Positions 28,745-29,833 of a stretch of DNA of 64,000 bases are shown piece after piece. Within the stretch, counting starts at the first letter, position 1, and the number at the start of each line of letters is the position of its first letter. Made by a program: the position numbers and the translations under genes. The stretch comes from Escherichia phage 215Ecol030PP. The stretch lies in the sequence record PP328843.1; one strand, given 5' to 3'. The notes beneath the pieces are model-generated. The model did not search any database. It saw nothing but the letters and a program-made list of their open reading frames with translations, and was not told the DNA's origin.

Positions 28745-28928
28745 AAGTTTTCCATGGTAAAGGCAGTTTAGTTTTCTTTACTGTTAGTTCAACATCAGGA
28801 TTCTTTTCTCTTAATTTAAGGCATTCCTCCCAAGCTCTGATTTCACTAGTGAATATACAAAATTGCCCATTACTAGTACCAACTAAACCACTATTTACAA
28901 TAGCCCAAGTTTCATGATGCCAAGCCAT
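28737..28928 (-). CDS. Hypothetical protein (cd.5 position)
   Basis: 63-aa ORF. Confidence 0.45.
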   Translation of the reverse strand: MAWHHETWAIVNSGLVGTSNGQFCIFTSEIRAWEECLKLREKNPDVELTVKKTKLPLPWKTYE

Positions 28929-29833
28929 TAAAAGTCACCATGGTTAACTTGCCAGCATTCAACACCGATACGACGCCACATCTCAACGACTTGGTTCCGG
29001 TCATCAACTGCAAGTTTAACATCGTAATTAGGCGCAATGTGTTTCCAGAAAATTTCTTCTTTAACTACATCATCTTTACGGGTATCACCTTGTTCGCGTT
29101 GGATATGCAAATTAAACGGAATATCGTTTTGTAAAAGCCACTCACGTGTCATAACATAATATTTTAACTTAGCATTTTCGGTGCCAGATTCACGTCCGCT
29201 TACCGTAATAATCTCATAACCCGAGTGATTAAGCATCTTCAGATATTGTACAACCATTTCGTTTGGTGTATCGGTTGATAATTTATCTAATTCGTATGGG
29301 CCACGAGATGTATGAATAGCTAGTGTTCCATCAAGGTCAAAGATTGCAGCTTTTGGTTTACCAGGAGTCCCTTTGTATACCGGAAGACCGAGATACTCTC
29401 GCATACTTTTATACATTGAGCGTAAAACATCAATTGGTACTGCTTTAGTTCCACGTTTTGAGTTACGTTTAACTAGCTCAGTCCAAGGAACATCAAACAC
29501 TTTATATTCAACTTTCCAGCCGTATTCTTTGGCAAAAGTTTCCCATGCTAGGCGACGTTCGGGATTCAAGTTAGTGTCTGAAATAATTACTCCCTTGACA
29601 GAATCACCACCGTACAGAATACTCTTCGCGGTATCAAACTGCATACCAGTTACGATACCTTCTTTCTTTTTGGTATACTTGTACTCATCACGTTCTTCAT
29701 GACCCATGATGGATTGACGATAATCATCACGATTGATATTATAAAATCCAGGATTTTTAGCAATAAATTCACGAGCCCAAGTACTCTTACCAGAACCAGG
29801 ACATCCAACAGTCAAAATAATCTTTTTCATCAT
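28928..29833 (-). CDS. pseT: Polynucleotide 5-prime kinase / 3-prime phosphatase (Pnkp)
   Basis: 301 aa; P-loop GCPGSGKST in the kinase domain and DLDGTL HAD motif in the phosphatase domain; the phosphatase half differs from the T4 sequence as I recall it. Confidence 0.9.

Follow-up and report, generated by a model that had tools for sequence, protein, structure and literature searches.

Evidence for recombination at a domain boundary in the polynucleotide kinase/phosphatase gene of Escherichia phage 215Ecol030PP

The pseT locus and its product

We analyzed a stretch of 64,000 nucleotides (nt) of Escherichia phage 215Ecol030PP (sequence record PP328843.1), referred to below as the window, with attention to pseT, the gene for the bifunctional polynucleotide 5'-kinase/3'-phosphatase (Pnkp). 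The sequence comparisons make it very probable that this is a functional pseT whose two domains have different histories: a kinase domain that belongs, with both flanks, to Tequatrovirus, and a HAD phosphatase allele of Mosigvirus and Dhakavirus backbones that was acquired by homologous recombination. The window itself is that of a Tequatrovirus, with a median identity to T4 of 97% (100-nt bins, all 64 kb), and the closest deposited genome reaches no better than ~96% over 24 kb. The genes at the locus follow the order rnlA, alc, pseT.3, pseT.2, pseT.1, an open reading frame (ORF) of 100 amino acids (aa), pseT, cd.5 and cd.4, the usual T-even context, and the locus is collinear with T4, RB14 and EcNP1. 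The position of pseT between cd.5 and the pseT.1-3 genes is shared with T4, but the 100-aa ORF (phrog_2364) directly upstream of it is not.

The ORF listing of the window gives a Pnkp of 301 aa, in which Pfam recognized an AAA_33 domain (aa 6-149, E = 2e-23) and a HAD_PNKP domain (aa 160-301, E = 1.6e-56). Using phmmer, aa 2-301 aligned over the full length with aa 1-301 of the T4 Pnkp structure (1LTQ, E = 2e-170), the window protein having an extra N-terminal Met. T4 Pnkp (PDB 1LTQ, 2IA5) likewise has 301 aa and consists of a P-loop kinase, defined by GxGKS/T, and a DxDxT HAD phosphatase. The two proteins are 82% identical overall and 96% identical in the kinase domain, and share all catalytic residues that were checked. 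They differ in the phosphatase, which in the window is very probably of other ancestry, lacks one residue near aa 236 and has a synonymous divergence (dS) from T4 of 0.9-1.9.

The reading frame of the chimeric gene is intact, and the equivalents of K15, D35, R126, D165, D167, T169, R176, S211, R213, D254, K258, D277 and D278 (T4 numbering) are kept in the window and in every allele type. Four of these (R176, R213, D254 and D277) are reportedly essential in T4 Pnkp according to mutagenesis work of the Shuman laboratory. Both active sites can thus be recognized in the window protein, the P-loop kinase by its AAA_33 match and the equivalents of K15, D35 and R126, and the DxDxT HAD phosphatase by its HAD_PNKP match, the motif DLDGT and the equivalents of D165, D167, S211, K258 and D278. 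The catalytic roles of these eight residues in T4 Pnkp have been described: in the kinase an Asp is the general base and an Arg the transition-state residue (within the set K15, D35, R126), and in DxDxT one Asp is the nucleophile and the other the general acid (PMC3592404).

Divergence from T4 and borders of the tract

A preliminary description of this DNA, made from the sequence alone, had read the kinase half as T4-like and the stretch after the DxDGT motif as substantially different, followed by a return to a conserved C-terminus. The peptides quoted there are present in the ORF, and comparison with T4 pseT (NC_000866, 134002-134907) bears out the description at the protein level, with aa identities of 96.4% (aa 1-165), 48.8% (aa 166-245) and 89.5% (aa 246-301). 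The stretch is thus neither identical to T4 nor part of a uniformly diverged gene. The nt differences are strongly clustered, the best segment giving a chi-square of 151.7 against a permutation maximum of 20.4 (0 of 200 permutations reached the observed value).

In a codon alignment of the window pseT with 12 other T-even pseT genes, the window stays within 92-100% of T4, RB14 and HY01 over the first ~470 nt of the gene; from nt ~486 it leaves them and does not rejoin them before the gene ends. Identity to T4 is 93.5% over nt 1-480, falls to 53-62% over nt 511-720, rises to 82-93% in the motif III region, which is universally conserved, and is 78-80% over nt 781-906. The corresponding dS values are 0.32 in the kinase part, 1.90 for aa 162-246 and 0.93 for the last 56 codons. 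The ratio of nonsynonymous to synonymous divergence (dN/dS) is 0.03 in the kinase part, 0.26 in the middle block, where it is probably overestimated and the dS of 1.9 is saturated, and 0.08 at the C-terminus. Ser211 and Arg213 (T4 numbering) are conserved although they lie inside the most diverged sub-block (aa 171-245).

The return to a T4-like C-terminus holds for the protein only, since at the nt level identity stays at ~78-80%. The likeness of the C-terminus to T4 (QREQGD, motif III/IV) appears to be the product of purifying selection across all T-evens and no return to T4 ancestry. With dS still at 0.93 and nt identity at ~78-80% there, the diverged tract therefore extends to the stop codon. 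The localized replacement inside the gene that had been proposed is thus upheld as a replacement, but it is no small internal patch: the foreign tract comprises the entire HAD phosphatase domain (~425 bp, window 28928 to ~29352).

The 5' junction is sharp, only ~20 nt wide, and lies just before the DLDGT codons, the last sites that match the T4 type only being at nt 471-480 and the first that match the Mosigvirus type only at nt 488-499. The crystallized construct of the isolated T4 phosphatase domain (5UJ0) aligns from aa 159 of the window protein, which places this junction at the start of the autonomous phosphatase domain. At the other border, the sequence GGTGAYTTTTAATGG in the 3' crossover zone is common to every genus aligned. 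Past the pseT stop codon the window is of Tequatrovirus type again (93-98%), in a region where Mosigvirus and Dhakavirus cannot be aligned, and the flanks on both sides of the tract are 93-99% identical to T4-type phages. The features of the gene and its functional partners are collected in Table 1.

Table 1. Coordinates of the parts of pseT and of related genes in the window
Feature	Position	Strand	Basis or remark
pseT coding sequence, polynucleotide 5'-kinase/3'-phosphatase (Pnkp)	28928..29833	-	ORF listing, Pfam, phmmer
Kinase module, codons 1-157, probable Tequatrovirus ancestry	29363..29833	-	nt identity, dS, neighbor-joining trees
5' crossover interval, gene nt 472-491, codons 158-164 (GKPKAA), kinase/phosphatase domain boundary	29343..29362	-	informative sites
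DxDxT motif, DLDGT (T4: DVDGT), Asp nucleophile and Asp general acid	29324..29338	-	translation, PMC3592404
Most diverged sub-block, aa 171-245, singled out in the preliminary description	29099..29323	-	53-62% nt and 49% aa identity to T4
Phosphatase (HAD) module, probable non-T4 ancestry, to stop codon	28928..29352	-	nt identity, neighbor-joining trees
3' crossover zone, final pseT codons and TAATG stop/start overlap with cd.5	28925..28942	-	alignment across genera
rnlA (RNA ligase 1), functional partner of Pnkp, outside the mosaic tract	31564..32688	-	99% aa identity to T4 Rnl1
stp (26-aa Stp peptide), outside the mosaic tract	60134..60214	-	identical to T4 stp

Using Pfam and PHROGs, we detected no seg, mob or intron endonuclease gene beside the tract, the two adjacent ORFs (29830-30132 and 28737-28928) being without a nuclease domain. 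Co-conversion by a homing endonuclease had been considered on account of the label "putative homing endonuclease" given to an ORF beside pseT in KarlGJung (Bas37) and TadeuszReichstein. The labelled Bas37 ORF is a homolog of phrog_2364 without a detectable nuclease domain, and this explanation was dropped. In the window, the phrog_2364 ORF (29830-30132, minus strand) lies between pseT and pseT.1 and has no Pfam domain; it is present in RB14, SHFML-11, HY01 and EcNP1 and absent from T4. On the other side of pseT, cd.5 (28737-28928, minus strand; Pfam T4_Y13H) has one copy of a TATTGT tandem hexamer fewer than all seven other aligned Tequatroviruses and encodes 63 aa instead of 65.

Relatives and carriers of the phosphatase allele

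The two parts of the gene have different relatives. In neighbor-joining trees, the window groups with Tequatrovirus for nt 1-480 (84% bootstrap), whereas for nt 481-906 it groups with Mosigvirus, Dhakavirus and Gaprivervirus (100%) and, among these, with AV115, SQ17, SF and KIT01 (95%). For nt 481-640 the window type is nested inside the diversity of these three genera. In the kinase part (nt 1-480), identity is 97.7% with HY01 and EcNP1 and 95.2% with RB14; with Mosigvirus and Dhakavirus it is no more than 76-82%. Over nt 481-906, the window is 67.8% identical to T4, 69.0% to RB14, 70.9% to HY01, 98.6% to EcNP1, 89.8% to the metagenome contig L014, and 86.8% to AV115 and SQ17.

Contig L014 (ENA ERZ28627098, scaffold_297) was found by querying a large collection of 5.8 billion proteins with the full-length Pnkp, which returned a protein (P0021) encoded on it. 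The backbone of the contig is that of a Mosigvirus, for the most part 95-99% identical to JS09 apart from a few divergent bins, and includes the Mosigvirus-specific DAHP synthase gene. In a triplet with T4 and L014 as parents, sites shared with T4 only numbered 97 before and 15 after nt 480, against 14 and 108 for sites shared with L014 only (Fisher p = 1.5e-33). The parent switch at nt ~480 was found in all 12 parent pairs (p <= 2e-19; Fisher p 1e-19 to 1e-38). The roughly sixfold jump in dS, the incongruent trees and this switch strongly support the earlier suggestion of recombination with a diverged homolog.

L014 and the Mosigvirus and Dhakavirus phages AV115, SQ17, SF and KIT01 have the same phosphatase type as the window, with 83.5-89.8% nt identity over the tract and sub-blocks up to 91-98%. 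They differ from the window in the rest of the locus, the kinase part being only 76-82% identical and the flanks, of Mosigvirus/Dhakavirus type, 60-80% identical or unalignable. In a phage collection, the next matches to the tract after 15 carrier phages described below were the Mosigviruses AV109, AV114, AV115 and AV116 together with SQ17 (~87%), followed by other Mosigvirus and Dhakavirus phages (81-85%) and typical Mosigviruses (~73%). Compared in 60-nt segments, L014 reaches 88-98% identity to the window where the segments begin at nt 511-691, a sub-block in which other Mosigviruses reach only 73-83%, and SQ17 reaches 95-98% where they begin at nt 721-811. Between nt ~510 and ~870, every portion of the tract finds a counterpart of 90-98% identity on some Mosigvirus backbone. 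A search of the 5.8 billion proteins with the phosphatase domain alone yielded no donor, all matches being either short fragments or distant HAD proteins.

Several points weigh against a simple transfer from Mosigvirus or Dhakavirus. Among the sequences compared, no donor is nearly identical across the whole tract; the best is L014 with 89.8%, and the best match varies by sub-block, such that the tract itself may be composite or the donor lineage unsampled. Moreover, the L014 block is a minority patch compared with the common JS09/RB69 Mosigvirus type (65-88% identity). A third lineage could be its source, or it could have passed from Tequatrovirus into some Mosigviruses, which leaves the donor lineage and the direction of transfer unproven. 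What can most safely be said is that this phosphatase allele is in circulation among backbones of Tequatrovirus, Mosigvirus and Dhakavirus.

The same chimera is present in 20 GenBank records representing 15 distinct Tequatroviruses (including EcNP1, Nami, P922, PP01, BF15, IME340 and NBG2), with identities to the window of 95.3-98.6% in the tract and 95.6-98.1% over the whole gene. All carriers have the gene annotated as polynucleotide kinase and share the junction of the window with a few point differences. The window-type allele is also found in a protein cluster of 76 members (P0020). Megablast found 312 records with a coverage of at least 80% of the gene; the window type accounts for 20-21 of these and the T4 type for the rest. 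Carriers differ in the first 100 nt of the ORF upstream of pseT, which are of RB14/SHFML-11 type in the window (91-95%) and of a different type in EcNP1 and PP01 (78-80%). As the allele sits on differing Tequatrovirus flanks, these have recombined since, and the allele has passed from one Tequatrovirus background to another. The chimera is neither recent nor private to 215Ecol030PP.

Reassortment of the two halves of pseT is not limited to this allele. We surveyed 51 sequences (cluster representatives, the comparison panel and the window), assigning each half to its best-matching reference at a match of at least 85% for the kinase and at least 80% for the phosphatase. Four kinase and four phosphatase types occur in 13 of the 16 possible pairings. 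The T4-type phosphatase is combined with Tequatrovirus, Dhakavirus, Gaprivervirus and SHFML-11-like kinases, the window type with Tequatrovirus, Mosigvirus and Dhakavirus kinases, the JS09 type with Mosigvirus, Tequatrovirus and Gaprivervirus kinases, and the CJ20 type with Gaprivervirus, Dhakavirus and Mosigvirus kinases. Further partners of the T4-type phosphatase are kinases that share no more than 66-72% identity with the kinase of T4 (P0063, P0064). Breaks occur within the phosphatase half as well: pseT of HY01 has a T4-type middle and a window-type 3' end, and the genes of JS09 and SQ17 differ only from nt ~655.

Two further sequences carry breaks within the kinase half. Shigella phage SHFML-11 (L010, 2491-3396) combines a T4-type phosphatase with a kinase domain that contains a Mosigvirus-like patch (gene nt ~150-330), a separate mosaic event. 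Contig L015 (Logan SRR11859179_15265, 1707-2609) has a left arm of Tequatrovirus (93-99% to the window) and a right arm of Mosigvirus (94-99% to JS09), joined inside pseT at nt ~390-420; its kinase is of T4 type and its phosphatase of JS09 type. The contig may represent a natural hybrid between genera or a chimera made during assembly, and because of the second possibility it was not used as evidence for natural hybrids.

Origin, alternatives and meaning

The most likely origin of the window pseT would be homologous recombination during mixed infection. One crossover would have taken place in a conserved stretch directly ahead of the DxDGT codons, and the other in the likewise conserved final codons and the TAATG overlap with cd.5, joining a kinase domain (codons 1 to ~158) and both flanks of the Tequatrovirus backbone to a phosphatase (codon ~162 to stop) otherwise found on Mosigvirus and Dhakavirus; the allele would later have spread among Tequatrovirus backgrounds. 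The chimeric protein should work like T4 Pnkp, and T4-like healing of tRNA ends is predicted because the catalytic residues are conserved. In this process, the phosphatase would strip the 2',3'-cyclic or 3'-phosphate and the kinase would phosphorylate the 5'-OH of the cleaved tRNA, after which Rnl1 would reseal it. Pnkp is a homotetramer with kinase-kinase and phosphatase-phosphatase interfaces (PMC2831316), and separate-domain crystal structures exist, as found with phmmer against structures (1LY1, 5UJ0). Since each domain folds on its own and each self-interface of the tetramer stays matched, the protein plausibly tolerates a swap of the whole domain.

The preliminary description had placed Pnkp with Rnl1 and Stp in a tRNA-repair counter-defense against the PrrC anticodon nuclease. 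Both partner genes are where it had put them: Rnl1 is identical to its T4 counterpart at 369 of 374 aa, and the T4 annotation describes stp, here unchanged, as an activator of host PrrC. The mechanically predicted rnlA ORF (31564-32724, minus strand) begins 12 codons further upstream at a GTG, and the ATG equivalent to that of T4, at 32688, gives 374 aa.

Mosaicism of T-even genomes and the shuffling of protein fragments in phages are general phenomena. Like other such cases, the pseT tract is a short tract of homologous recombination with sharp borders in an otherwise collinear genome ~97% identical to T4; unlike them, it coincides with the complete catalytic domain of a bifunctional enzyme. 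A literature search restricted to open-access texts found no paper on whole-domain mosaicism in pseT. The pseT chimera is ordinary T-even mosaicism, here at a domain boundary.

Elsewhere in the window, other patches of 62-79% identity to T4 lie in sequence that is 95-100% identical, at 5201-5300, 34301-34500, 39701-39900 and 47801-48100 (in the 24.3/hoc, nrdB, frd and gene 34 regions). Inserted or replaced stretches that cannot be aligned to T4 are located at 39.1-39.4, 40.1-40.9, 57.9-58.2, 61.7-61.8 and 62.5-62.7 kb. Around 4 kb (50200-54400), at the distal long-tail-fiber genes (37/38), have no nt alignment to T4, and the receptor-binding module there is presumably of a different type. The sole Rfam match in the window is a group I intron (38183-38406, minus strand, td region; 65.5 bits), complete to the model within 224 nt.

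Other explanations of the pseT chimera differ in how well they account for these data. Metagenome assemblies can join co-occurring T-evens, as may have happened in L015, but the frame is intact and the identical junction recurs in complete genomes of 15 phages that were isolated and sequenced independently, which leaves a chimeric contig or sequencing artifact a negligible chance. Accelerated point mutation at aa 171-245, under relaxed constraint or positive selection and without recombination, would fit the observation that the region between HAD motifs I and III is the least conserved in all comparisons, with a nonsynonymous divergence (pN) of 0.25-0.36 versus the T4, JS09 and CJ20 types compared with 0.07-0.12 in the kinase part between genera. 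Synonymous sites, however, jump 3- to 6-fold as well, the junction is sharp (~20 nt), and the block has counterparts of 90-98% identity on backbones whose remaining sequence is 60-80% identical or unalignable, which makes local acceleration highly improbable. We also considered that T4-type phages are the recombinants and that the window phosphatase is the ancestral Tequatrovirus allele. The T4-type phosphatase is indeed mobile too, being combined with Dhakavirus, Gaprivervirus and SHFML-11-type kinases as well as those of P0063 and P0064, and for nt 641-906 the window-type clade is closer to the T4-type clade than the JS09/CJ20 clade is. This is nevertheless very unlikely, if less so for the 3' sub-block, as the T4 type forms the large Tequatrovirus majority, the window type nests within the three other genera for nt 481-640, and its allele sits in differing Tequatrovirus flanks.

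The swap could instead be adaptive, if host defenses or inhibitors kept phosphatase alleles of ~50% divergence in circulation and shuffled them, hosts differing in their anticodon nucleases (PrrC, RloC or other tRNA-cleaving enzymes) or in factors that target the Pnkp phosphatase. pseT is a conditional counter-defense gene, and the T4 annotation ties rnlA, pseT and stp to prr hosts. In a HIDEN-SEQ preprint, the PseT ortholog of Bas37 is among the most significant effects in clinical E. coli isolates versus K-12. In four genera, a number of phosphatase types separated by deep divergence exist side by side and are freely recombined with the kinase types. dN/dS peaks in the middle block (0.26 versus 0.03 in the kinase part), and of the five aligned 100-nt bins in the 64-kb window with less than 70% identity to T4, two belong to the pseT patch. 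Against this, dN/dS does not exceed 0.26 in any segment versus T4, is well below 1 in all comparisons and amounts to 0.09-0.17 among carriers of the window-type block, while active-site residues are invariant. Comparable patches occur in genes unrelated to defense (hoc, nrdB, frd and gene 34 regions), and in literature searches no host factor was found to be described as a modulator or target-seeker of the phosphatase domain of Pnkp. We therefore regard diversifying selection by host defense as unlikely. With kinase and phosphatase halves that behave as modules reassorting independently in at least four Tevenvirinae genera, balancing or diversifying selection might maintain several phosphatase alleles of ~50% mutual divergence, which would differ in their preference for the RNA ends produced by different tRNA or anticodon nucleases of the host or would evade a host factor aimed at the phosphatase domain. 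The window allele would then be one adaptive state of a counter-defense polymorphism, a reading that is somewhat less likely still. Allele-specific fitness effects have a similarly small chance of being real, given the listing of the PseT ortholog by HIDEN-SEQ. The host-defense motive offered in the preliminary description for the replacement has no positive evidence here and stands unsupported.

Recombination remains the preferred reading, in the form of a whole-domain chimera whose donor is unsampled or composite. Some 15 deposited phage genomes already carry the allele, with the gene annotated as polynucleotide kinase. The chimera opens no long-standing question, and by itself it says nothing on PrrC or other defenses. 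Its value is mainly corrective, as what looks like a small internal replacement in the protein is a swap of the whole phosphatase domain. For T-even phages, it provides a clean case of recombination at the boundary between enzyme domains. The natural occurrence of most combinations of kinase type with phosphatase type may be of interest for Pnkp engineering, and the gene may also be of interest for the question whether counter-defense genes are unusually mosaic.

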